Part shown: positions 23,966 through 36,848 of the stretch, in pieces
How positions within the stretch are numbered: position 1 is the stretch's first letter
How the letters are laid out: each line of letters starts with the position of its first letter
Origin: Opitutia bacterium
GTDB lineage: Bacteria > Verrucomicrobiota > Verrucomicrobiia > Opitutales > Opitutaceae
NCBI GenBank assembly: GCA_947478395.1
Contig: CANJVR010000009.1
Location: 27,232 to 91,231 of the forward strand
Direction: 5' to 3'
Length of the DNA: 64,000 nucleotides
Notes under the pieces: model-generated
What the model was told of the DNA's origin: nothing
Databases searched by the model: none
What the model saw: the letters and a program-made list of their open reading frames with translations, nothing else
Made by a program: the position numbers and the translations under genes

Positions 23966-24814
23966 TCAGACCAAGCGGCGCCAAGTCTCGCCCACGAGAT
24001 CACGCATGAGCCGTTCGCACGTGGTCGCACTGTGATCGACCGCGGCGCGTAGTTGCCCTGCGTCGAGGGTGGCCCGGACGCAAACGGCCTCGAGTTCACG
24101 CGCGCTTGCCACACGTTCGATGCGCCGTCCCTCGGGAAAACTCCGCTCGCTGCGGCGGAGTTTCAGCTCATGCAGCAGACGAAAATTAGTCTCGGCGAGT
24201 TCGCGGTGCAGCATGCGCTGGGCGGCGCTCAATTCGCCCCGCGCAATCTTGCGTAGCGTCCACAACTGCTCGCATGCGAACGCGTGCGCCAGGCCCCGCG
24301 CCGCCTCGTCGCTCAAGCGGAGATCCGGCACCTCGGCAACGACCTTCCGGTAAAACGGATCCCACGCTTCGCTGCCGTGCAAAAATCTCCAACCCGGCCG
24401 GATCACGATCGCGAGATCCTGCAGGCCCCGGCGTACTTTGCCTTCCATCCGATGCCGGCCAAGTAAGACCAGCCATTTCAAAAGCCGCATCATGCCCGCC
24501 GACAGGATGACAAAATCGGTTTCCACGCCCGTGAATATGGCGTTCACCTTCGGCACACCCCCGATCCGCGCCACGCGCGAAGCGTAGGCGCGAATTTCGA
24601 AGTTTTTCCCAATTTCCCGGGTCCAATCCGAGTTGGAAAATCGTCCGGCTGCGCTCGTGATGATTTGAAAATCCCAGTCCGATTCCGGATCGGCGCGCCA
24701 GATTTCGTCGGTGGCTTTTCTTTCGCGCGAACCGATCAACACGAGCGCTTTCACGGCCGGCGTGCGCTGGGCCCAGGCAGTCATGGCTTCGCCAAAATCG
24801 ACCGGGATACTCAC
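23966..24814 (-). CDS. Pol-beta-superfamily nucleotidyltransferase, aminoglycoside 6-adenylyltransferase-like
   Basis: VLIGSRER...DPESDWDF (GS plus DxD), third Asp in ETDF, KIARGEL and GRRIE motifs of the ANT(6)-like helical domain. Confidence 0.65.
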   Translation of the reverse strand: MSIPVDFGEAMTAWAQRTPAVKALVLIGSRERKATDEIWRADPESDWDFQIITSAAGRFSNSDWTREIGKNFEIRAYASRVARIGGVPKVNAIFTGVETDFVILSAGMMRLLKWLVLLGRHRMEGKVRRGLQDLAIVIRPGWRFLHGSEAWDPFYRKVVAEVPDLRLSDEAARGLAHAFACEQLWTLRKIARGELSAAQRMLHRELAETNFRLLHELKLRRSERSFPEGRRIERVASARELEAVCVRATLDAGQLRAAVDHSATTCERLMRDLVGETWRRLV

Positions 24815-26592
24815 AGGCTGCGCAGTGAAATTAAAATTTCCGTGCCGTTCATACCCGGACCGGCGTGAATTTCGCCGTGATGCAGACGTAATACCTCCTT
24901 CGCCAAAAATACACCGATACGGCCTTGATTGGGGACCAAGCCGTCAGCCGGCTCCGGCAGGATGCCTTCGAGCTCAAGGTGCTTGCCCTTGATCGACAGC
25001 ATGGCGGTCAATTCATCCCCCTTACCAGCGGACCGCACCTGCAACGTCAGCTCTCCTCCGTTCAGGGCGAATCGGTTTTCAAGGACGGTGGCGATCAGCG
25101 AGCGCAGGGAGAATTCGATCAATTCCCTAGTGACCGAAAGTGGCACCGGGTCAGGGCCGACTTCGACGCGGAACCCAAGCACGGCGCCGACCCCCTGCGC
25201 GAGTTCGCGCAGATCAACGACCGAAGGCTTGGCCTCGTAGAGCGACTGCATGAGGCGGATGTTACCGTTCAGTGCCTCAAGTTTTGCGACGTCGCCCCGC
25301 GCCGCTTCGAGCAGAGGCGGTGGAATATTGTTTCCCGCTCCGGCCTGCCGGAACGTCGTGAGCGAGACCAGCGCGTTAGCCAATTCATGATTGAGAGTAA
25401 GACCGAGTTCGCGGAGCAGGGTCCGGCGATCAGCCCGCTCACGTTGGGCCATATCTTGCCGCTCGAGACTCGCTTCCTCCCAAAACGCCCAGACTCCACC
25501 GGTTTCGACAATCGGACCGGAGCTCGCGCGAAAGGGTTGGCCCGGCTTTGGCGTGACGCGGCAGACGCCTTGGGCAACGCGCACATCCCCAATGAGCGCG
25601 CGCACGACAAGCGGGACCTGCCGTGGTGGATTTTCGTCGGGGCCCAAAATGAGAGTCCCCGGCAGATATTTCGCCCCGAGTGTCGCCTGCTCCGCCAGAT
25701 GGTGGAGACGCGCATATTGCCCACACTTCATCAGAAAATAGCGCAAGAGCCGCGCGTAATGGACCAGACGGGTGCGATCGAACTCGTCGTAGGGCTGGCC
25801 ATCATCGCGGACGCCGAGCGCAATAAGTCCCTGCAAGCGGCCGTTCTCGTGCATGGGTGCAAGCAACCGGGCGCCCCACAGCGCGAGCCGGTTGCGAATG
25901 GCCAGTTCCGCCACGGGATCGGCCGGGCCTTCCCACGACGATCCATCGACCACGATCGGATGAGTTTCAAAGAAAACCACCAAGGGATCATCGAGCCGAA
26001 AAAATGAGGTGCCTCGATCGGCGCGGAACCCGTCGGGCTCACGCAGAAAAAAAACCGCGTGCGACGCCCGCAGTAAATGGCGCGAGGCCCGGCGAAATTC
26101 CGCGATCAGCCGGTCGCGCGTATCCATCGTTTCAACTGCGGCCTCCAGGAAATCCCAAAGCTCAGCGGCGTCCACCAAAGGCTGCACTCGCGCGGTCGGC
26201 CGCACCGGCTCAGCGCGGCGGATCCGATCCGCCATTAGCTCAAGCATCGATTGTTTTTCTGCGACTTCCTCGACCAACGGCAGTAATTCCCGCAAGCGCA
26301 CGGCGCTCTCTTCGTAGGAGAGATAAATTTTGGCGCGCCCTGACAGTTTCGCCTGCTCGTATGGCAGGCTGCGGGGTTCACCGACAAAAATAGTAGCACA
26401 ACGCGCAAGCGCGGGCGGCAGGTCTGCTTCCGCCGCCGCATCCAAAACCACAACGGCTGCAAACCCCGGAGAAGTGCCGCTGGACAGCGCGTGCGGAATC
26501 ATCCTCAGCGCCGTTTTTCCCGGCGCGACCTGTCGTTCCCACGCATCCCCCAAAGCGGAGTCCGACGTCGCGAGAATGATTAAGGTCGGCAT
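24811..26592 (-). CDS. Pseudo-receiver, GAF-like and degenerate histidine-kinase protein
   Basis: LLAPMHENGRLQGLIALGVRDDGQPY (GAF-like), H-box LNHELANAL, no recognisable N or G1 box, GRIGVFLAKEVLRLHHGEI as G2 remnant. Confidence 0.7.
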   Translation of the reverse strand: MPTLIILATSDSALGDAWERQVAPGKTALRMIPHALSSGTSPGFAAVVVLDAAAEADLPPALARCATIFVGEPRSLPYEQAKLSGRAKIYLSYEESAVRLRELLPLVEEVAEKQSMLELMADRIRRAEPVRPTARVQPLVDAAELWDFLEAAVETMDTRDRLIAEFRRASRHLLRASHAVFFLREPDGFRADRGTSFFRLDDPLVVFFETHPIVVDGSSWEGPADPVAELAIRNRLALWGARLLAPMHENGRLQGLIALGVRDDGQPYDEFDRTRLVHYARLLRYFLMKCGQYARLHHLAEQATLGAKYLPGTLILGPDENPPRQVPLVVRALIGDVRVAQGVCRVTPKPGQPFRASSGPIVETGGVWAFWEEASLERQDMAQRERADRRTLLRELGLTLNHELANALVSLTTFRQAGAGNNIPPPLLEAARGDVAKLEALNGNIRLMQSLYEAKPSVVDLRELAQGVGAVLGFRVEVGPDPVPLSVTRELIEFSLRSLIATVLENRFALNGGELTLQVRSAGKGDELTAMLSIKGKHLELEGILPEPADGLVPNQGRIGVFLAKEVLRLHHGEIHAGPGMNGTEILISLRSL

Positions 26593-28583
26593 GGAAAGGT
26601 GACACGAAACGTCGCGCCCTGACCAAAGATCGGCTGGTCGGCCACAATCGTAGCATTAACATTGGCCAGAATGTCCCTACATATCGCCAGTCCAAGGCCA
26701 AAACCAGACGACTTGCTCGACTGAAAAGTTTCGAAAAGCCGCGGCCAAATATCCGGCGCAATCCCGGGGCCGCTGTCCGAAATCACTAACTCAATATTGT
26801 TTCCGACGTTGCGGGAAACGATTTTAATCCAGCGGTCGCCGGGCTGCGTTTCAACGGCTTGGATCGCGTTCAAGCAGAGATTGAGCACCACCTGCTTGAC
26901 CGCGGCAGGATCCGTATAGATGGCATCGGGGGCGGCCAATAAGTCGGAGCGCAATGCGACATTAAAGCCTGCTGCTTTCGCCGCAACGAGATCAAGGCTC
27001 TCGCGTAGCACCGCATGGAGCTCCATCAATTTTGGGGAGTAAACCCTGGGCGCCGCCACATCCAACAATTGTTCCGTCAGCCGATCTATGCGTCTAACTT
27101 CATCGCTGATGACGCGGAAAAATTTATCGCGGAAAGCCTGATCCTGATAGTGCTGCGGCAACAGTTGAACAAAGGTCTTGATCGCAACGAGTGGATTTCT
27201 GATTTCGTGCGCCAAGCTGGCGCCTAGCAGGCCCACGGTAGCAAGTTGAGCAGCGTGCTGCGCCTTGGCGGAGAGGCTGGCCCGCTCGAGCGCGTTTGCT
27301 ATAATCGCGGCAAGTTCCAGGAGCTGCAGAACCTGCGGGTAGGTGAACGGGCGCCTTGACGCAGCTAAACCGACGCCGACCAACGCATTTAGCGTCGGCC
27401 CATCACAGGCGACCAAAATACCCAAATTTTGATCAGAGAGAAATTTCGCAAGAGCGACACGGGCAGGACTAGGCCGTTCGCGAGCCAGCCGCTCAGGTGT
27501 CGCCCAGCGGATCTCCTTCATGAGCTGCGATTCGCTGGAATCCGCGGAAATTTCAATACCACCGCCTTGATAAAAACCTGCAGCGCCGGAAAGCACTATC
27601 GCATGCTCGCTTCGTCCCCAACCCTTCAGGATGGAGAGAAATACACCTACAAGCTCTTCCATCTGAGCCTCCTTGCCAGCGGCAGAAAAAGCTGCCCGCC
27701 GAGCATTAATCACCTGAGGATAAGCTTGAAATGCGCGGTTGAGCCAGGCGTTCAATAAACCAGCAAACCACAGCGTGAGAGCTGTCGTCGCCAGAAATTC
27801 AAGAGGGGGAGGAAAAATTGGACCCAAGCTCACGTTCAGCACCCATGCAAAAGCACAGCTCAGCAATACCAGAACACTCTTTTCCGCGCATACTATCACT
27901 ACTTGCCGTGCATCGAAGATGCGATGGGTGTTGATACCGATTACAGTAAATGCATACAGCACCAAAACAATGATCGGCTGGAGCTGAATGGCAATACGCG
28001 CGTTAAAAACTGCACCGACAGCCATGAGTACTAAAACAGTTACAGCTACCGCACTACCGCCCAGCAAAAGGATTTGAAGCTCCAATCTAGCAGCGCCAGC
28101 CCGCGCTCGCATTTTAACAATGGTATCACTACAAAGACCGGCATAAAGTAACACAAGCCCGCCCATATATGCGTAGTAACCAAAGCCGTAAATTTTATCA
28201 CCTGCAGTAGAATGGGCCGGAACAAACCAGCCAGTAAAGCTGACGATCGCTAACGCCAGCGAACATAAAACCCAAATCCACCCCCTGCATACAATAACTT
28301 TAATCCCCGGTGAACACTCAATAACAGCTTCTTTCAAAAGCCAAAGATGCAACGGGATAAAAGCTCCCGCAGCGGAAGATATTCGCACCCAAATAAGACC
28401 ATTACTGCCTAGAGTTGCAATATAAACACAAGTAATCCACGCACTAACATGCACAGATAATGTGAAAAACCATCGGTTTATTGCACGACGCGGATTAGCC
28501 CAGAAAGCAGCACAGCCGACAAGGAGAACGGCCACGGCAGCCAGCACCGCGGCAAAAGAACTTATTTGCTCATGACCAGACAT
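26580..28583 (-). CDS. Multi-TM (7TM-type) sensor histidine kinase
   Basis: About 8-9 hydrophobic N-terminal segments, LAHEIRNPL, LNLCLNAIQA, DSGPGI, GFGLGL. Confidence 0.92.
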   Translation of the reverse strand: MSGHEQISSFAAVLAAVAVLLVGCAAFWANPRRAINRWFFTLSVHVSAWITCVYIATLGSNGLIWVRISSAAGAFIPLHLWLLKEAVIECSPGIKVIVCRGWIWVLCSLALAIVSFTGWFVPAHSTAGDKIYGFGYYAYMGGLVLLYAGLCSDTIVKMRARAGAARLELQILLLGGSAVAVTVLVLMAVGAVFNARIAIQLQPIIVLVLYAFTVIGINTHRIFDARQVVIVCAEKSVLVLLSCAFAWVLNVSLGPIFPPPLEFLATTALTLWFAGLLNAWLNRAFQAYPQVINARRAAFSAAGKEAQMEELVGVFLSILKGWGRSEHAIVLSGAAGFYQGGGIEISADSSESQLMKEIRWATPERLARERPSPARVALAKFLSDQNLGILVACDGPTLNALVGVGLAASRRPFTYPQVLQLLELAAIIANALERASLSAKAQHAAQLATVGLLGASLAHEIRNPLVAIKTFVQLLPQHYQDQAFRDKFFRVISDEVRRIDRLTEQLLDVAAPRVYSPKLMELHAVLRESLDLVAAKAAGFNVALRSDLLAAPDAIYTDPAAVKQVVLNLCLNAIQAVETQPGDRWIKIVSRNVGNNIELVISDSGPGIAPDIWPRLFETFQSSKSSGFGLGLAICRDILANVNATIVADQPIFGQGATFRVTFPCRP

Positions 28584-29764
28584 GCGTTTGTTCCTGAAAG
28601 ACCGTGGGCATTTACTAGAGTAATCTGAGCCTGAAGTTTCCTGAAGTTTGAGCTCAAATTAAGGGCGCATAGTGGATCAGGAAATTTCCAATTAACCGTT
28701 GGCGGCAGCAATCCATGGCGCAATCCAAGCGCGGAGCATGCTATTTGAATCGCACCGGCAGCGCCGAGAGGATTGCCGATTGCGCCCTTGATTGAGAAAA
28801 CAGGGGTTTCCTCCACTCGTTCTCCCAACAAACGTGTGATCGCGACTGCTTCGGAGGCGTCGACCAAGCGATGCCCAGGACCCCATGCATTTACGGAATC
28901 AACATCAGAGACCTTATACCCACCGTTTGCGACCGCGAAGCGCATTGCGTCCATCATCCCTTCTCCGGGCATCTCAATAGAGTCGGTCGCGAATGCGTAT
29001 CCATCAATAAATGCATAACCAGGGCGCGGACTGGAATCCGGTTCTAACACTAAAACACACGCCCCCTCGCCGATTACTCCAGTAGTTCGCCACAGGTCAA
29101 ATGGTCTGCATTGGCGTTCCGGCCAATCCGAATTACCGGGCGCCAACCCAGCCATCTTCATTTCCAGCATGGGGTGAAAGTACAACGGAGACTCCGTTCC
29201 GCCACAAATGGCTATATCCGTTCGGCCCTGAGCAACCATGTCGGCGCCATGGCCGATTGCATCAAGTCCCGAGCAACATGCACTTTGATACGCCATCGTA
29301 CGAGTGGTGCCGCCGACAAGCTCACTGATAGTCCCAGCAATCGAGCTAACTGACGCAGAAAAAACCGAAGTTGGAAAGCCAATCACGGGCCCTTTTTTAA
29401 CTATCATCTCAACTGTTTTGTTGATAGTCCCAAAATCCATTAGTGACGCCCCAACCAAAATAACAGCATTTGTATTTTTAAGATCTTTTAATCTAAACCC
29501 AGCGTCCTTAGCTGCGAGTATTGCCGCAGCCACGGCTAGTTGCGTATGACGAGGCATACGTTTGTCGTGAATATCGGACACATAGTCATCTAATTTGAAT
29601 GACTTGATTTCTGCACCGACGAATTGGCCCGCTTCTTCATAGAAACGGGTAATCGATCCGACGCGGCTGACAGGCTCTAAGATACCTTTCCAGAAATTTT
29701 CCCTTCCAATTCCTGCTGGGGTAACCGGCCCGATACCCGTGATCTTTACACGTCGTCGCTTCAT
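28562..29764 (-). CDS. FabF-fold beta-ketoacyl synthase-like protein with atypical active site
   Basis: RRVKITGIGPVTPAG, SACCSG, CRPFD, GEGACVLVLE, LPPTVN; NAWG and GNPLGAAG replace the canonical NAHG and GHLLGAAG. Confidence 0.88.
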   Translation of the reverse strand: MKRRRVKITGIGPVTPAGIGRENFWKGILEPVSRVGSITRFYEEAGQFVGAEIKSFKLDDYVSDIHDKRMPRHTQLAVAAAILAAKDAGFRLKDLKNTNAVILVGASLMDFGTINKTVEMIVKKGPVIGFPTSVFSASVSSIAGTISELVGGTTRTMAYQSACCSGLDAIGHGADMVAQGRTDIAICGGTESPLYFHPMLEMKMAGLAPGNSDWPERQCRPFDLWRTTGVIGEGACVLVLEPDSSPRPGYAFIDGYAFATDSIEMPGEGMMDAMRFAVANGGYKVSDVDSVNAWGPGHRLVDASEAVAITRLLGERVEETPVFSIKGAIGNPLGAAGAIQIACSALGLRHGLLPPTVNWKFPDPLCALNLSSNFRKLQAQITLVNAHGLSGTNACLVMSK

Positions 29765-29801
29765 CTAGAGCGAGCGGGGGGTGGGCGCATAACTCACGAT
29801 T

Positions 29802-30953
29802 TTAAGCGCCCGGCTCCCGGGCCACGGGGACCACGATCCGAATCGTCGTCCCTTTCCCGTGTGCGGACGTCAGCTCGAACGTTCCGCCATGCGCACCTAT
29901 TAGGTGCCGGCAGATGCTCAACCCCAACCCGGTTCCACCGGGTTTGCTGCTAAAACCTCCGCGCAATGCCCGCCTTACACGATCCGCGTCCATGCCAGAT
30001 CCGTTGTCCACGATCAGAACTTCAAAATTATTTTCCTGGCGGGAAAAAGTTACCGTTAGAGCTGTCGCGCCCGCTTCCAAAGCATTCTTAAACGTATTTT
30101 GGAAAATCCGCATCAGCTCGTATTTCGAGCCGCGCACAACGGCGTTGGGTAGGCCCTCGTTGCGTATGGCGGGATTCCCGAAAAACAAAACCTGCCTCAC
30201 ATCCTCGGCCACGCTCACCAAATCCACCGGCCCAAATTCTGCAAGTTTCCTAAAGGACGATCTCCAATTCTCCGAGAGATGATGACAGTACTCCGCCGCT
30301 TTTTCGACAATTTCCGCGTAGCCCGTGAGCTTGCTCGCGATCTCCACTTCGTGCGCCGCAATCCTCCGTGCCTCCTCGGCCAGCAACGTCGCATAGCCAA
30401 TCACGACCGTCAGCGGATTGTTCAAATCGTGCACGAGTTCGACCGATGCCCGCGCCTGCCAGATCTGCGGCTCGTTCCGCTCAATTTCTGACTTTAGCGC
30501 CACGTTCATCGCTTGCGCGTCCATCGCCAATTTCTCGTGAAGACGACGCATCCGCGTGGCCTCGACCTGCTGGCGGACCGCGTCGCGTAGTTCGGCTACG
30601 TCCGGCGGCTTGCGCAGGTATTGATTGGCTCCCGCCAGCATCGCCTGCTGGGCCGTCAGCAAAGTACCGTATCCGGTCAGCATGATCACCGAGACCTGCG
30701 AATCGATCTTACGCAGTTCCTCCAATGCGCGGATCCCATCCATCTCTGGCATGCGAATATCCATCACCACCGCGGCATAGGAACGCTGCTTCAGCTTGGC
30801 TAGCGCCTCGCTCGCCCGTTCCGCCGTATCAACCGCAAACTCCGTCGACAACGTGAACGCAATCGACTCACGCGGACCGTATTCGTCGTCGACCACTATA
30901 ACCAGAGGCCGATCTGCCGACACAGCGGGAGCGGTAGATTTTTGCATCAACAT
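29802..30953 (-). CDS. Hybrid response regulator-histidine kinase (REC, HisKA, HATPase)
   Basis: VVDDE, MDIRMPEMDG, LTGYG, KPP; VHDLNNPL, FKNALEA, DNGSGM, GTGLGL. Confidence 0.92.
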   Translation of the reverse strand: MLMQKSTAPAVSADRPLVIVVDDEYGPRESIAFTLSTEFAVDTAERASEALAKLKQRSYAAVVMDIRMPEMDGIRALEELRKIDSQVSVIMLTGYGTLLTAQQAMLAGANQYLRKPPDVAELRDAVRQQVEATRMRRLHEKLAMDAQAMNVALKSEIERNEPQIWQARASVELVHDLNNPLTVVIGYATLLAEEARRIAAHEVEIASKLTGYAEIVEKAAEYCHHLSENWRSSFRKLAEFGPVDLVSVAEDVRQVLFFGNPAIRNEGLPNAVVRGSKYELMRIFQNTFKNALEAGATALTVTFSRQENNFEVLIVDNGSGMDADRVRRALRGGFSSKPGGTGLGLSICRHLIGAHGGTFELTSAHGKGTTIRIVVPVAREPGA

Positions 30954-31095
30954 TCTAAAGAGGCGCCCAAAAGAAACACGCCGAGCGCGAGACGGAGTTG
31001 TACCATGGGTAACGCGGGTTTGCAGTCTGCGTCGCACTCTGTCAAGGAGTGCGTCCCTCCGGTCGCTACGCTGCCACGTCTTCATCTCTCACTCC

Positions 31096-32640: not shown

Positions 32641-32721
32641 ACTCCGCGTTCATTGCGAAGAGCGCCTATTAAGGGCCGATCACGCCGCCAGCTCCAACGC
32701 ACCAAGCAAAAGCACAAATCT

Positions 32722-34821
32722 ATGCCCATAATAATTATAGCCATCGCAATTTTCACCATAGCCCTGGGTGCTGTTGTCGCATGGGCAAACCCAGAGCGCT
32801 TGCTTAATCGCGCATTCTGTACCGCAGCCATCATCCAGGCCATCTGGCTCGGATGCGTCTATGCAATGATTCTAGCAGGCTCTCGAGGCAATTTAGACGA
32901 GGTCGCTTTTTGGTTGAGGCTAAATGCAGCATTCTCCGCATTTTTTCCTCTTACACTTTGGTTAACCAAGGAACTTGTCTCAGTACCCAAGGACCACAAA
33001 CGCCTGTTAATGAATTGTATCCCATGGATTCTCGCTGGCGTTCTATTAGCGTCGCTTGCGTACACACCTTCATTTGTTTTTCGAGGAACGAACCCTCAAC
33101 GCTATGAGCGTGGACCTGGCTACTATTTATACGAGCTACTGGCGCTAACCATCTATTGCATTCTAGTAACAGAAACGTTTCGAAAGATGCGAAGCCTAAG
33201 CGGCATGCGACGCATTGAAACTCAATTTCTCGCGATGAACCTAGTAATCGCCGGACTCATCGGAACACTTTTAACCGCAGTAGGCACTTATCTCGATAGC
33301 TCGGCATTAAAGAGACTGAGCATTGCCGCATTTTTCTGCGCTTACGCGGCCTCGGCTTGGGCCATAAGCACACATCGCATATTCGAATTCCGTCAAGTTT
33401 TCACGTCGATTTCGCAACGGATTAGCGTCATAATTATATCTGGTGTTGGTGTAGCCAGCGCAACTTGGTTTCTCGATATTTTCCTACCCCAATATATCGC
33501 TCTTTTCATCAGTACATTATTTTTCGGAGCTTTAGCTTTTTTATTGGATCGCAAGTCGCGCGAGTGGCTCGACCTAAATAGGATGCGTCACCTTGCGAGA
33601 TTTCGGCAGACTTTTATCGAGGTCGCGAAGCGCGAAGCGAGTCCGGACGAATTATGTCTGCGATTCTCAACGTTATTGAGCGCCGAACATGGAACACTCC
33701 ATGCCATGCTGCTGATCGATAAAGGTGTGGGAGTCCCTGAGTCGGCGCTAGAGATCTCCAAAAGCCGTCTTGGCTATTCCGCGCTCTGCCAGATGGGCTG
33801 GGCCACTCCTGAAAGTCTTGAGCGGCGACGGCCCGATCCAGCTTTGGCTGACTTGCAAGATTTCCTCTCTGAAAACAATCTCGGCGTGATTGTTACCAGT
33901 CCCCATGGCAGTGAAAGCCCCGCCTTGGTCGTTGCGTTAGGCAGGAAACCCAACGATTGGCCTTTCACTTACCCCGAGGTCCAGCGGCTTCAGAATATTG
34001 CCGAGCTGATGGATAGCATCCTCGCCCGCTCTCGCCTCGCCATGCAGGCCGCCATGCAGGTAAAACTGGAGCACATGGCGATGATGTCACGCGGCCTGGC
34101 CCACGATCTGAGCAATCTCATTACACCCATCTCGTCGTTTCTGATTTGCACCGATGGTAGATTCCCAGTCGGCACCACTGAAGCAGAGGTTCATTTCGCC
34201 GCGCGGCGCTCGATTCGGGTGATGGGCGAGTATGTCCGGGAGGCACTATTTTTTTCAGAGCGACTTTCTCCAAACTTCGAGCGCGTCGATCCTGGCGCGC
34301 TGTTTCGCGCGGTCCAAGACCTCACCACCGCCCAGGCCACCGAGCAAGGTGTCGTAATTTCGATCTCATCCGATTATCATGACACGTTCCAAGGCGACAC
34401 GATCCTCCTCCACCGCACGCTCGTCAATTTGGTGAATAATGCCCTCGACGCCTCAAAGACCGGTCAAGTTATTGAATTGTCCGCAACCGCTGGGCCCCTC
34501 GGCCGGGTCCTTATCAAAGTGAGCGATTGCGGCTCCGGCGTGCCGCCGGAAAACATTGCGCGGATTTTCGATCCTTATTTTACGACGAAACAGTTTGGCG
34601 CCGAAGTGCGCGGTTTTGGCCTGGGGCTGACTATCTGCCAAAAAATCGTGCATCTGCATCACGGGACCATTTCGGTAAGTAGCAGGCCGAACCGAGGCAC
34701 GACGTTCACCATCGACCTGCCCATTTCACCAGCCCCCAACGGTACTCGGATGACGCAAACCCGCGTTGCCCCCCAGCCGCGCGAGATCGCGATCGCAAGG
34801 CCTCAGCCCATCCTAACATGA
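32722..34821 (+). CDS. Multi-TM (7TM-type) sensor histidine kinase, paralog of 26580..28583
   Basis: Hydrophobic N-terminus, LAHDLSNL, VNLVNNALDA, DCGSGV, FDPYFTTK, GFGLGL; shares WANP, THRIF, WATPE and PFTYP motifs with the first kinase. Confidence 0.92.
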   Translation: MPIIIIAIAIFTIALGAVVAWANPERLLNRAFCTAAIIQAIWLGCVYAMILAGSRGNLDEVAFWLRLNAAFSAFFPLTLWLTKELVSVPKDHKRLLMNCIPWILAGVLLASLAYTPSFVFRGTNPQRYERGPGYYLYELLALTIYCILVTETFRKMRSLSGMRRIETQFLAMNLVIAGLIGTLLTAVGTYLDSSALKRLSIAAFFCAYAASAWAISTHRIFEFRQVFTSISQRISVIIISGVGVASATWFLDIFLPQYIALFISTLFFGALAFLLDRKSREWLDLNRMRHLARFRQTFIEVAKREASPDELCLRFSTLLSAEHGTLHAMLLIDKGVGVPESALEISKSRLGYSALCQMGWATPESLERRRPDPALADLQDFLSENNLGVIVTSPHGSESPALVVALGRKPNDWPFTYPEVQRLQNIAELMDSILARSRLAMQAAMQVKLEHMAMMSRGLAHDLSNLITPISSFLICTDGRFPVGTTEAEVHFAARRSIRVMGEYVREALFFSERLSPNFERVDPGALFRAVQDLTTAQATEQGVVISISSDYHDTFQGDTILLHRTLVNLVNNALDASKTGQVIELSATAGPLGRVLIKVSDCGSGVPPENIARIFDPYFTTKQFGAEVRGFGLGLTICQKIVHLHHGTISVSSRPNRGTTFTIDLPISPAPNGTRMTQTRVAPQPREIAIARPQPILT

Positions 34822-36038
34822 GCCGGCGGATCGATCACCTCTTTACCCCTCGTATCCTTGTGGTGGATGACGAGCAACAAATCCACGCCTCACTACGGCT
34901 ACGATTGGCCAAGGACCACGAGATCGTTTCCTGTCTTGATCCCGCCGCCGCCCTTAGCGTGGTCGCCGAATCCCAGTTCGATCTGTGCCTCGTCGACATC
35001 CATATGCCCGGAATGGATGGACTCACCTTCATCGAGGCCGCCCAAAAAAGCGATCCAGCGCTCGGCTTTGTGGTCCTCAGCGCGTTCGATTCAGCTGAAA
35101 ATCTCCGCCGTACCATCCCGCTTCAGGTTTTTGAATTCGTGACGAAACCGTTCCCGGAACGACATGAATTCGAGGCGCGCATCCCGGGCTGGGTCGACCG
35201 GACCCGCAAACAAAGGCAGGAGCAAAAACTCGCCCTAGACGCCGCCATCCTCAACCGCGAGCTCGAGTTCGCTCGTCAGGAACGCGAAATCGAGCTGGTT
35301 GCCTCGGAAACAGCCCGGGATGCGTTGCTCCAAACGACCAACCTGCTCACCACCGTCAACGCCCACCTCGACACAGCGGTGGCTCTCGTTGCCACAAAAG
35401 CCAAGGCTGACCTAGGTTCCGCCCCGCTGCTGCGGAATTTGGACGTGGCCCGAAAAACCGCCGACGCCGCGGTCACGGTGGCCGAAAAATTCTTCGGCTC
35501 TGCCTACGCCAACCGCGACTCTGCGCCAGCCTTCATCGATTCAGGCCTTCAGCATGCCATCCAGATTGCGCTGCGCATGAATATCGCCGGGATCGAAAGC
35601 AAAGCCGTGGATTTCTCCCCGGCCGATGGACGTTCGTTGGTGCGTGGGCTATCCGGCATCGATTTTCTCCTCATGATGATCCCGCTCGTTAGCCTCGCAT
35701 TGATGGTGACCGAGCCGAACACCACCGTCGGCCTGCGGGCGGAAACGATCGGGCGACTCGACGTTGTTTCAAAAGACTCCCGGTTTCGGAACTATCTTTG
35801 GATCAACCGTCGCAACGCGCTCAGCAGCCAGCCGGGTGTCATGATTTCGCTGGCCGCAACCGCGCCGGCATTCGCCCGTGCGGCGGCGGTAAGTTGGCTG
35901 AACGGGGACGATGGCCCGCTCGCCTCCAATACGCCGCGCGGGCTAGTTGCCGGCCTCCAAAAAAGCCGCGGCCTCCTAGGTCTGAGCATATCACCTCTTT
36001 GCGATCAGTTTCGAGTCTGTCTCGCTCTTCCCGGATAA
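34818..36038 (+). CDS. Response regulator with degenerate kinase-like C-terminal domain
   Basis: ILVVDDE, LVDIHMPGMDG, LSAFD, TKPF; coiled coil; no clear H, N or G boxes; ATGA overlap with the upstream kinase. Confidence 0.8.
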   Translation: MSRRIDHLFTPRILVVDDEQQIHASLRLRLAKDHEIVSCLDPAAALSVVAESQFDLCLVDIHMPGMDGLTFIEAAQKSDPALGFVVLSAFDSAENLRRTIPLQVFEFVTKPFPERHEFEARIPGWVDRTRKQRQEQKLALDAAILNRELEFARQEREIELVASETARDALLQTTNLLTTVNAHLDTAVALVATKAKADLGSAPLLRNLDVARKTADAAVTVAEKFFGSAYANRDSAPAFIDSGLQHAIQIALRMNIAGIESKAVDFSPADGRSLVRGLSGIDFLLMMIPLVSLALMVTEPNTTVGLRAETIGRLDVVSKDSRFRNYLWINRRNALSSQPGVMISLAATAPAFARAAAVSWLNGDDGPLASNTPRGLVAGLQKSRGLLGLSISPLCDQFRVCLALPG

Positions 36039-36065
36039 GCCGAAGCGAAACCCTCACTGATCATC

Positions 36066-36848
36066 GTGCTCACGATCATCTCCAGTGTCGCACGGGAACG
36101 CGCTGCCTTCGCCGCGTTAAGCGACGCCCGCCGATGGGGCTACTCGGAGTGCGACAGCATCCGCGCATTCAAGAGGCTGCTGCAACACACCCGACCTGGA
36201 ATTGTCTTAGTCCGACAGAAACTGAGCGATGGGTACTCGGATGACGTGATCGCGCTCTTGAAGGACAACGGGGCTTCCGCCACGAAAATCGTGGTCCTAC
36301 TTCCCGCCGGTTCACCGTCGGCGCTGGAGGCCCGCCAAATCGCGCTGGGCGCACATTGCGTGCAACGTGATCCCGTTCGCACTGACGTGCTGGTCGAATA
36401 TCTCAACCAATACCGCGTCCATTCGAAACACACCGCGAAAGCCTCTCCGGCGGCAGCGCCCACGTTCCCATTCGCCGGCGCCACCATTCATTTCGTCGAT
36501 CGAAAAATTGAATCAAAAGGAAAATCGGCGAGCCTGACCCCGCGCGAGCTCCAGCTCGCCGGGCTGCTTGGCGAATCCGCGGGGGCCGTGCTTTCATACG
36601 AAACTTTGTATAGCGAAATTCTCAGCCAGAAATTTCGGGGCGACACCAGCAACCTACGCGTGCTGCTCGGCAAGCTCGATGTTTCCGCGCGCCGCGCCGG
36701 CATCGCGCTCCGCAGCTGGGTCGAGGTGATTCCAAAACTGGGCTATCGGTATCGCGCCCCTTCATCCGATTTTCTATCCATTCGCCGCCCTCGTTGCCGT
36801 AACAGTGCTCTCGCGCGAGCTCCCGGAATTCTCCCCGCTAAATCCTAA
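36066..36848 (+). CDS. OmpR-type winged-helix regulator with atypical receiver
   Basis: LTPRELQL, NLRVLLGKL, EVIPKLGYRY; receiver lacks the acidic pocket (IISSVARE) and the phosphoacceptor Asp (VLVRQKLSDG). Confidence 0.8.
   Translation: MLTIISSVARERAAFAALSDARRWGYSECDSIRAFKRLLQHTRPGIVLVRQKLSDGYSDDVIALLKDNGASATKIVVLLPAGSPSALEARQIALGAHCVQRDPVRTDVLVEYLNQYRVHSKHTAKASPAAAPTFPFAGATIHFVDRKIESKGKSASLTPRELQLAGLLGESAGAVLSYETLYSEILSQKFRGDTSNLRVLLGKLDVSARRAGIALRSWVEVIPKLGYRYRAPSSDFLSIRRPRCRNSALARAPGILPAKS

Follow-up and report, generated by a model that had tools for sequence, protein, structure and literature searches.

A FabF-fold protein with a rebuilt active site co-varies with a neighbouring membrane histidine kinase in Opitutaceae and is a candidate signal synthase

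Introduction

Several quorum-sensing systems, among them CqsA/CqsS, RpfF/RpfC and PhcB/PhcS-PhcR, encode the synthase of a fatty-acid-derived signal beside a membrane histidine kinase, which is the arrangement that we propose below for a new gene pair; PhcR is a receiver-kinase hybrid, a protein type that recurs in the locus described here. In Bacillus, comQXP contains a hypervariable region of the agr kind that spans the signal gene and the receptor kinase. The agr hypervariable region itself covers agrB, agrD and agrC, according to one study (PMC10482373). Ketosynthases can also produce signals, as a report on Photorhabdus PpyS describes an autoinducer made by head-to-head condensation (PMC4578411). 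Here we describe KS* (P0001), a FabF-fold protein whose gene adjoins that of a seven-transmembrane (7TM) sensor kinase, HK1, in a 64,000-nucleotide stretch of an Opitutaceae genome (contig CANJVR010000009.1, positions 27,232 to 91,231), hereafter called the window.

Verrucomicrobiota are widespread in soil and fresh water, and our literature search found no native cell-to-cell signal system for this phylum. A full-text literature search, judged from titles and the beginnings of abstracts and covering few subscription journals, also returned no paper on the KS*-kinase cassette. The logic of a synthase encoded beside its receptor, with polymorphic types, is known; for the enzyme family and for the pairing, no published description turned up. 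We consider the chances about even (a probability of roughly 0.5) that KS* is an acyl-transferring autoinducer synthase and that the neighbouring 7TM kinase is its receptor.

Results

KS* is a protein of 400 amino acids encoded at 28562..29764 on the minus strand. The first-pass annotation of the window had described a FabF-like enzyme with its cysteine kept and both catalytic histidines replaced. The four motifs behind that description, SACCSG, NAWGPGH, KGAIGNPLGAAG and NAHGLSGTN, are all present in the translated frame, and alignment to E. coli FabF confirmed the cysteine as well as the changes of H303 to Trp and of H340 to Asn. A Pfam search matched KS* to PF00109 and PF02801, the thiolase-fold ketosynthase domains. 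Its AlphaFold model has a predicted local distance difference test score (pLDDT) of 88 and matches B. subtilis FabF (4LS8) with a template modelling (TM) score of 0.94 at 31% identity, and the listed Protein Data Bank (PDB) matches were FabF, FabB and type II ketosynthases. KS* nevertheless fell below the FabF family cut-offs, scoring 249 bits against a cut-off of 494 for TIGR03150 and 244 against 387 for PRK07314.

Comparison of the individual residues with E. coli FabF divided the active site into two parts. Cys163 (codon 29276..29278, minus strand, as for all KS* residues) aligns with the nucleophile C163 and Lys326 with K335, and equivalents of D311, E314 and N396 are also retained. The segment W294-G-P-G-H298 (28871..28885) takes the place of FabF H303-G-T-S-T307, such that H303 is replaced by Trp294 and the pantetheine threonines T305 and T307 by Pro296 and His298. 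Further replacements are Asn331 (28772..28774) for H340, Gln340 for E349, His387 (28604..28606) for F398, Leu389 for F400 and Gly229 for F229. The GFGG gate reads GLSG, and gate loop 2 is shortened by 4–5 residues. In FabF, as described in PMC9006962, the role of T305 and T307 is to hold the pantetheine arm, and that of F400 is to open the malonyl pocket. Judged by these roles and by the residues kept and replaced, the acyl-cysteine half of the KS* site is retained and the malonyl/pantetheine half is rebuilt. With Cys163, Trp294 and Asn331 at the positions of the FabF Cys-His-His triad, this alignment does not support the common annotation of KS* proteins as 3-oxoacyl-acyl carrier protein (ACP) synthase II.

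Two of the new residues are histidines. By alignment and published FabF roles, His298 lies at the place of Thr307 in the pantetheine channel, away from the place of H303. His387 aligns with the base cysteine of thiolases (Cys378; C379 in AtoB) in a register read from motifs and not from structures; the role of that cysteine and the thiolase fingerprints NEAF, GHP and CxG are taken from PMC3406046. KS* has NAWG, GNP and HGL instead, and only the His387 register fits Cys378/379. Membership of the KAS III family was likewise not found, as the Pfam matches of KS* are only the ketoacyl-synt domains and a weak Thiolase_N match. We also considered His387 as a general base resembling thiolase Cys378. 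This candidate was weakened on two counts, since 114 of 120 distant matches carry Arg at this position and since PDB entry 9s5h_B, apparently with both triad histidines, has His there too.

The substitutions are common to homologues, which excludes chance or sequencing error as their origin. Among 120 homologues at 60–100% identity, Cys163 and His387 occur in 120, His298 and Asn331 in 119 and Trp294 in 117. The 88 genome loci of the family retain Cys163 and His298 in every case, Trp294 in 87 and His387 in 85; Asn331 is found in 64, with Thr (17), Ser (5), Ala (1) or a gap (1) in the remainder. Cys163, His298 and Asn331 are invariant in a set of 120 distant proteins, in which position 294 is Tyr in 114 and His in 6, and position 387 is Arg in 114, which form one clade, and His in 6. 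Further distant members pair His294 with Asp298. Loss of Cys163 was confined to genomes G223 and G401 and to one library representative. These residue counts indicate that the cysteine, the loss of H340, the GP motif, Gln340 and a basic residue at position 387 are constant across KS*.

KS* was found in 84 of 201 Opitutaceae genomes, as a single match in each and with an internal stop in one. In a sample of the phylum it occurred in 25 of 301 genomes, 10 of which carry distant forms (35–38% identity); named distant matches come from Kiritimatiellia, Pontiella (including the cultured Pontiella desulfatans) and Chthoniobacterales. Outside Verrucomicrobiota, one 4.9-kb contig of a metagenome-assembled genome labelled Polyangiaceae gave a match, but it is possibly misbinned and does not establish KS* there. 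The earlier view that KS* is not a housekeeping FabF was borne out, as a canonical Cys-His-His FabF scoring above the TIGR03150 cut-off is encoded on another contig of the same genome, which has four other ketosynthases with both histidines retained. In 28 genomes examined, the true FabF has the Cys-His-His triad and an ACP gene nearby (28/28).

HK1 (26580..28583, minus strand) is a HisKA_7TM-type membrane sensor with a GAF-like domain followed by HisKA and HATPase domains; its H-box and G boxes are intact, and PF16927 is matched in distant orthologues. The two frames share 22 nt, from the HK1 start to the KS* stop, and the genes overlap or abut in most loci. The enzyme gene is fixed beside the putative receptor gene, as in quorum-sensing cassettes: a 7TM kinase directly follows KS* in 95 of the 97 genome loci with downstream DNA (one further locus ends at the KS* gene). 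Among metagenome loci that reach 500 bp or more beyond KS*, 71 of 72 have this kinase next to it. HK1 is missing from the KS* locus in L069 and L094. The link between KS* and the adjacent kinase that had been suggested from the letters of the window thus holds, and the fixed gene order and the co-variation described below make it stronger than the letters could.

Most of KS* and the 7TM part of HK1 form a hypervariable block with approximate ends at 27800 and 29660 (27800..29660, minus strand), recognized by a dip in DNA identity and by G+C content at third codon positions (GC3), which is 0.47 in KS* and 0.52 in HK1 compared with 0.67–0.78 in most neighbours. Genomes G454 and G471 are 97–98% identical in FabF and 98% in the kinase core, but only 59% in KS* and 56% in the 7TM part. 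DNA identity between them falls from 82–95% in the flanks (74% in one upstream window) to 55–66% in the block, a drop that extends from about 150 to 1,950 bases after the KS* start and hence over about 2 kb. Synonymous divergence (dS) is 1.0–1.6 in the block and 0.39–0.48 outside it. The raised dS and the drop in identity therefore point to replacement by an old allele. When six other pairs were compared, the dip covered both genes in three and the 7TM part only in one, and was absent in two.

Alleles of the enzyme and of the putative receptor also diversified together. Partial correlations, controlled for four other cassette and flanking parts, were computed for 60 of the 88 loci; L089, in which HK1 is frameshifted, and loci missing a part were excluded. 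In permutation tests that treat related genomes as independent, the distances of KS* and the 7TM part correlated at 0.52 (p 0.0005), compared with 0.07 (p 0.10) for KS* and the GAF domain. Tree comparisons, given as differences in log-likelihood (lnL) because the approximately unbiased (AU) tests were run at 2,000 replicates, under the advised number, agreed with this pattern. The KS* tree fitted the 7TM alignment better than the core tree by 658 lnL units, and the 7TM tree fitted the KS* alignment better than the core tree by 1,161 units. The GAF alignment instead preferred the core tree over the KS* tree by 478 units. KS* and the 7TM part have a common ancestry that sets them apart from the other parts of the cassette.

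Within KS*, differences cluster in segments 107–141 and 191–206, which from knowledge of FabF we take to line the acyl channel and the dimer face. Across 28 genomes, mean identity was 0.46 in these pocket segments and 0.55 elsewhere; FabF of the same genomes showed the opposite direction, 0.86 versus 0.81. In the distant clade, where discrete pocket types recur, L198 and L204 differ at 21 of 51 pocket positions and at 30 of 349 others (p 2e-8), and a second pair at 23 of 51 and 31 of 349.

The window carries, in the order of transcription, a receiver-kinase hybrid (29802..31085, minus strand; its true start is probably about 45 codons in), KS*, HK1, a GAF pseudokinase (24811..26592, minus strand) that retains its H-box and has lost the ATP-binding G boxes in the family consensus, and an ANT(6)-fold nucleotidyltransferase-like protein (23966..24814, minus strand). 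None of the 98 genome loci examined carried a gene for ACP, FabD or FabH, and no second ketosynthase adjoins KS*, although one of the 98 loci has one farther off. Distant cassettes bring in a sigma-54 regulator as well as FadL, the latter in 7 of 10 distant genome loci, and some also contain an O-methyltransferase. An FAD oxidase is encoded in 16 of 98 genome loci, and 35 of 80 metagenome loci carry a LanB-like gene. The product of the latter (also L046:5395-7830) is a stand-alone protein of about 810 amino acids with a lantibiotic dehydratase N-terminal match (PF04738), whose gene follows that of the receiver-kinase in the Tyr294/Arg387 clade; from its likeness to PEARL enzymes, it could be a tRNA-dependent ligase. 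In L060 (12708-16547), the 7TM kinase is separated from the pseudokinase by a NodU-like carbamoyltransferase and a GDSL-like protein. The variability of the ANT(6)-fold gene often reaches that of the KS*-7TM block: in 4 of 7 pairs its DNA is about 50% identical, G454/G471 not being one of them.

The GAF pseudokinase occurs in 101 of 201 family genomes. Eighteen of these lacked a KS* match: KS* was cleanly absent with the kinases kept in 10 and Cys-less in 2, and the cassette was broken in 1 and cut by a contig end in 5. The nucleotidyltransferase gene was found in 76 of 88 KS* loci compared with none of 12 cassettes without a Cys-bearing KS*. The Cys-less copies (L152:6947-8098 and L155:7719-8873) are intact frames from two genomes of one genus that lack Cys163, His298 and His387 and have a shortened pocket region; a third genome of the genus has no KS*. 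In L161 (G455) the entire cassette is fragmented, from KS* and HK1 to the pseudokinase and the nucleotidyltransferase. In the complete genome G390 (L069 and L146), the gene directly after KS* is that of the pseudokinase, while a 7TM kinase and a nucleotidyltransferase gene lie about 1.9 Mb away. KS*-less cassettes in L145 (897-3853), L153, L156 and L159 adjoin an exopolysaccharide sugar transferase, and L145 also has a PEP-CTERM-type ATPase slightly below its cut-off; these neighbours hint at the regulated output.

The cassette can also be lost as a whole. A stretch of 6,835 bp (24169..31003) is skipped in near-identical contigs of two other freshwater metagenomes, which join 24168 to 31004. 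The join is well supported in X12, where the contig measures 1,463 bp and the shorter side of the join spans at least 255 letters; in X9 the shorter side has 26. Other contigs of the same metagenome runs cover the stretch. Some conspecific strains lack the cassette entirely, and it is dispensable as a unit.

A second 7TM kinase of the HK1 family, HK2 (32653..34821, plus strand), is 29% identical to HK1, has low GC3 and has no ketosynthase beside it. It is followed by two regulator genes within 32653-36848, a receiver protein whose C-terminal domain has no assignment (34818-36038) and an OmpR-type regulator (36066-36848), and is possibly an orphan receptor. A fold search with the HK1 model gave GAF matches only, apart from weak matches to G-protein-coupled receptors at E above 0.02, and assigned no receptor family. 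Prediction of a complex between KS* and HK1 residues 8–440 scored 0.00 and was used neither for nor against an interaction.

Discussion

The first-pass annotation had left acyl transfer and acyl-chain sensing side by side; the comparative evidence added here leans towards a signal synthase. In the mechanism that we propose, Cys163 would take an acyl group and hand it to an acceptor other than malonyl-ACP. Since the cassette showed no gene for an ACP or an acyltransferase, the donor would be the host fatty-acid pool, and the second half-reaction would be acyl transfer or head-to-head condensation with no malonyl decarboxylation, because H303 and H340 are lost. His298 and the basic residue at position 387 may bind or activate the acceptor, and the pocket alleles would fix the acyl chain and hence the signal type. 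The lipid-like signal would be passed across the outer membrane by FadL, tailored or inactivated by the clade-specific nucleotidyltransferase, FAD oxidase, O-methyltransferase and LanB-like protein, and bound by the matching 7TM domain. Phosphoryl groups would then move from HK1 to the pseudokinase His, the receiver-kinase hybrid and a regulator, with a sigma-54 activator in distant cassettes, and cassettes without KS* would be listeners.

Several observations weigh against a signal synthase. Some concern the pairing itself: since KS* and the 7TM part are adjacent, one recombination tract can correlate both without functional pairing, and the permutation tests assume independence among relatives. 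Similar KS* proteins accompany unlike 7TM parts in L079/L084 (82% and 41% identity), L075/L076 (80% and 40%) and another pair (81% and 47%). Co-variation is weaker in the distant clade. There, KS* of the Tyr/Arg type is much less variable than the 7TM part (mean identity 0.77 versus 0.52), L198 and L204 are 87% identical in KS* and show mild variation, and the pocket-7TM partial correlation is 0.11 over 41 loci compared with 0.30 in the family of the window. The segments counted as pocket presumably double as the dimer face. Other observations concern catalysis: no one new histidine is universal across KS* clades, and both pantetheine threonines are absent, a loss that impairs other ketosynthases according to PMC9006962. 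As to the cassette, ten loci keep the kinases without KS*, the 12 cassettes free of the nucleotidyltransferase represent only about five genera, and intact Cys-less KS* in two genomes shows a nonsynonymous divergence (dN) of 0.41 at a dS of 1.9 (dN/dS near 0.2). Persistence of this Cys-less form hints at a non-catalytic role.

Such a role is the core of the most serious alternative, which we nevertheless regard as unlikely, namely that KS* is a cytoplasmic co-sensor that receives an acyl group on Cys163 from the acyl-ACP or acyl-CoA of the cell, or binds lipid, and alters HK1 activity by direct contact. The overlapping or abutting genes, the dismantled malonyl and pantetheine half-site and the absence of visible substrate-supplying genes from the cassette would suit a co-sensor as would the Cys-less copies, but it is the membrane 7TM part, rather than the cytoplasmic GAF domain, whose variation follows that of KS*. 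Swapping of alleles among close relatives would be unexpected for a sensor of the cell's own metabolism. The ten cassettes that retain kinases without KS* also argue against it, as do FadL and the tailoring-type enzymes of distant cassettes.

More doubtful still is the idea that KS* processes a signal from outside, in which case it would be a Cys-His hydrolase or transacylase and a lipid imported via FadL would be activated or destroyed by it. Although FadL is an importer, and although an enzyme of this kind would likewise co-vary with the receptor, the cassettes share no other gene that is a candidate for the synthase. The two residues conserved most strictly are Cys163 and His298 (88/88 and 120/120), which favours a Cys-His enzyme; in several distant representatives, however, His298 is replaced by Asp.

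Decarboxylative condensation of the FabH type by means of a relocated Cys-His-Asn triad, which the first-pass annotation had raised, appears improbable. Asn331 is invariant in the distant set, and some distant members that retain His at position 294 have Cys-His-Asn in place. The triad of FabH/KAS III, PpyS and OleA is absent from the branch studied here, and the relocated version is not supported in it because 23 of 88 loci have Thr, Ser or Ala in place of Asn331 and because His298 lies at the place of Thr307 and not of His303; position 294 is moreover Trp in 87 of 88 loci, and Tyr in 114 of 120 distant matches. Finally, although KS* has low GC3 and its relatives include one pseudogenised cassette (G455) and two degenerate copies, we give almost no credence to a decaying copy of FabF or an ordinary elongating FabF, as KS* is a stop-free single match in 83 of 84 genomes, dN/dS of 0.04–0.16 in four same-type pairs shows purifying selection, key positions are nearly fixed in homologues, and a FabF above the cut-off is present besides in 30 of 30 genomes tested.

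If KS* is a signal synthase, it would provide new autoinducer chemistry and a ligand for a HisKA_7TM kinase. G454 compared with G471 and G279 would then supply natural matched and mismatched enzyme-receptor pairs in which specificity is directly testable. FabF would also prove open to rebuilding into a non-elongating enzyme that keeps its cysteine. More tentatively, and with odds somewhat below even, we propose phylum-wide quorum sensing in Verrucomicrobiota, in which a FabF-derived acyltransferase makes new lipid autoinducers for a HisKA_7TM receptor, with exchanged alleles as in agr, producer-less listeners and losses of the whole cassette in the same populations.

Among known proteins, FabF/KAS II (E. 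coli FabF; B. subtilis FabF, 4LS5/4LS8) shares with KS* the fold, Cys163 and the equivalents of Lys335, Asp311, Glu314 and Asn396. KS* differs in the replacement of H303, H340, T305, T307, F229, F398, F400 and E349, in its shorter gate loop 2 and in its sub-cut-off score, and it adjoins a kinase whereas the 28 true FabF loci each have an ACP gene. To our knowledge CqsA, RpfF and PhcB are pyridoxal phosphate, crotonase or methyltransferase enzymes, none of them of the thiolase fold, and the receptor proposed for KS* is of the HisKA_7TM type. Chain-length factors and anammox FabFmut, as presented in a preprint (bioRxiv 10.64898/2026.05.19.726425), resemble KS* in having a FabF fold with a broken triad; they differ in that their Cys is lost and an active ketosynthase partner is adjacent, whereas Cys is present in 88 of 88 KS* loci and no partner lies next to KS*.

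PrsK/PrsR and the N-acyl amino acid synthases, which PMC7293339 links to PEP-CTERM systems, offer a membrane GAF kinase, a sigma-54 regulator and FAD oxidase and methyltransferase neighbours; some of the cassettes studied here abut exopolysaccharide genes. HK1 was rejected as a PrsK (TIGR02916), scoring 75 bits against a cut-off of 300 over its C-terminal part only (77 bits for a distant orthologue), and KS* is not a GNAT synthase. PpyS of the PpyS/PluR system is also a stand-alone ketosynthase that makes a quorum-sensing signal (PMC4578411), but with a Cys-His-Asn triad, a model based on OleA with a Glu base, and a LuxR solo as its partner; KS* is FabF-derived and paired with a membrane kinase. 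Finally, staphylococcal agrBDCA resembles the KS* locus in its hypervariable region over signal-making genes and receptor kinase between conserved flanks (PMC10482373). No precursor peptide gene was noticed in the KS* cassette, which was not searched systematically for one. The agr signal is a ribosomal peptide, whereas the variable enzyme at the KS* locus is a ketosynthase.

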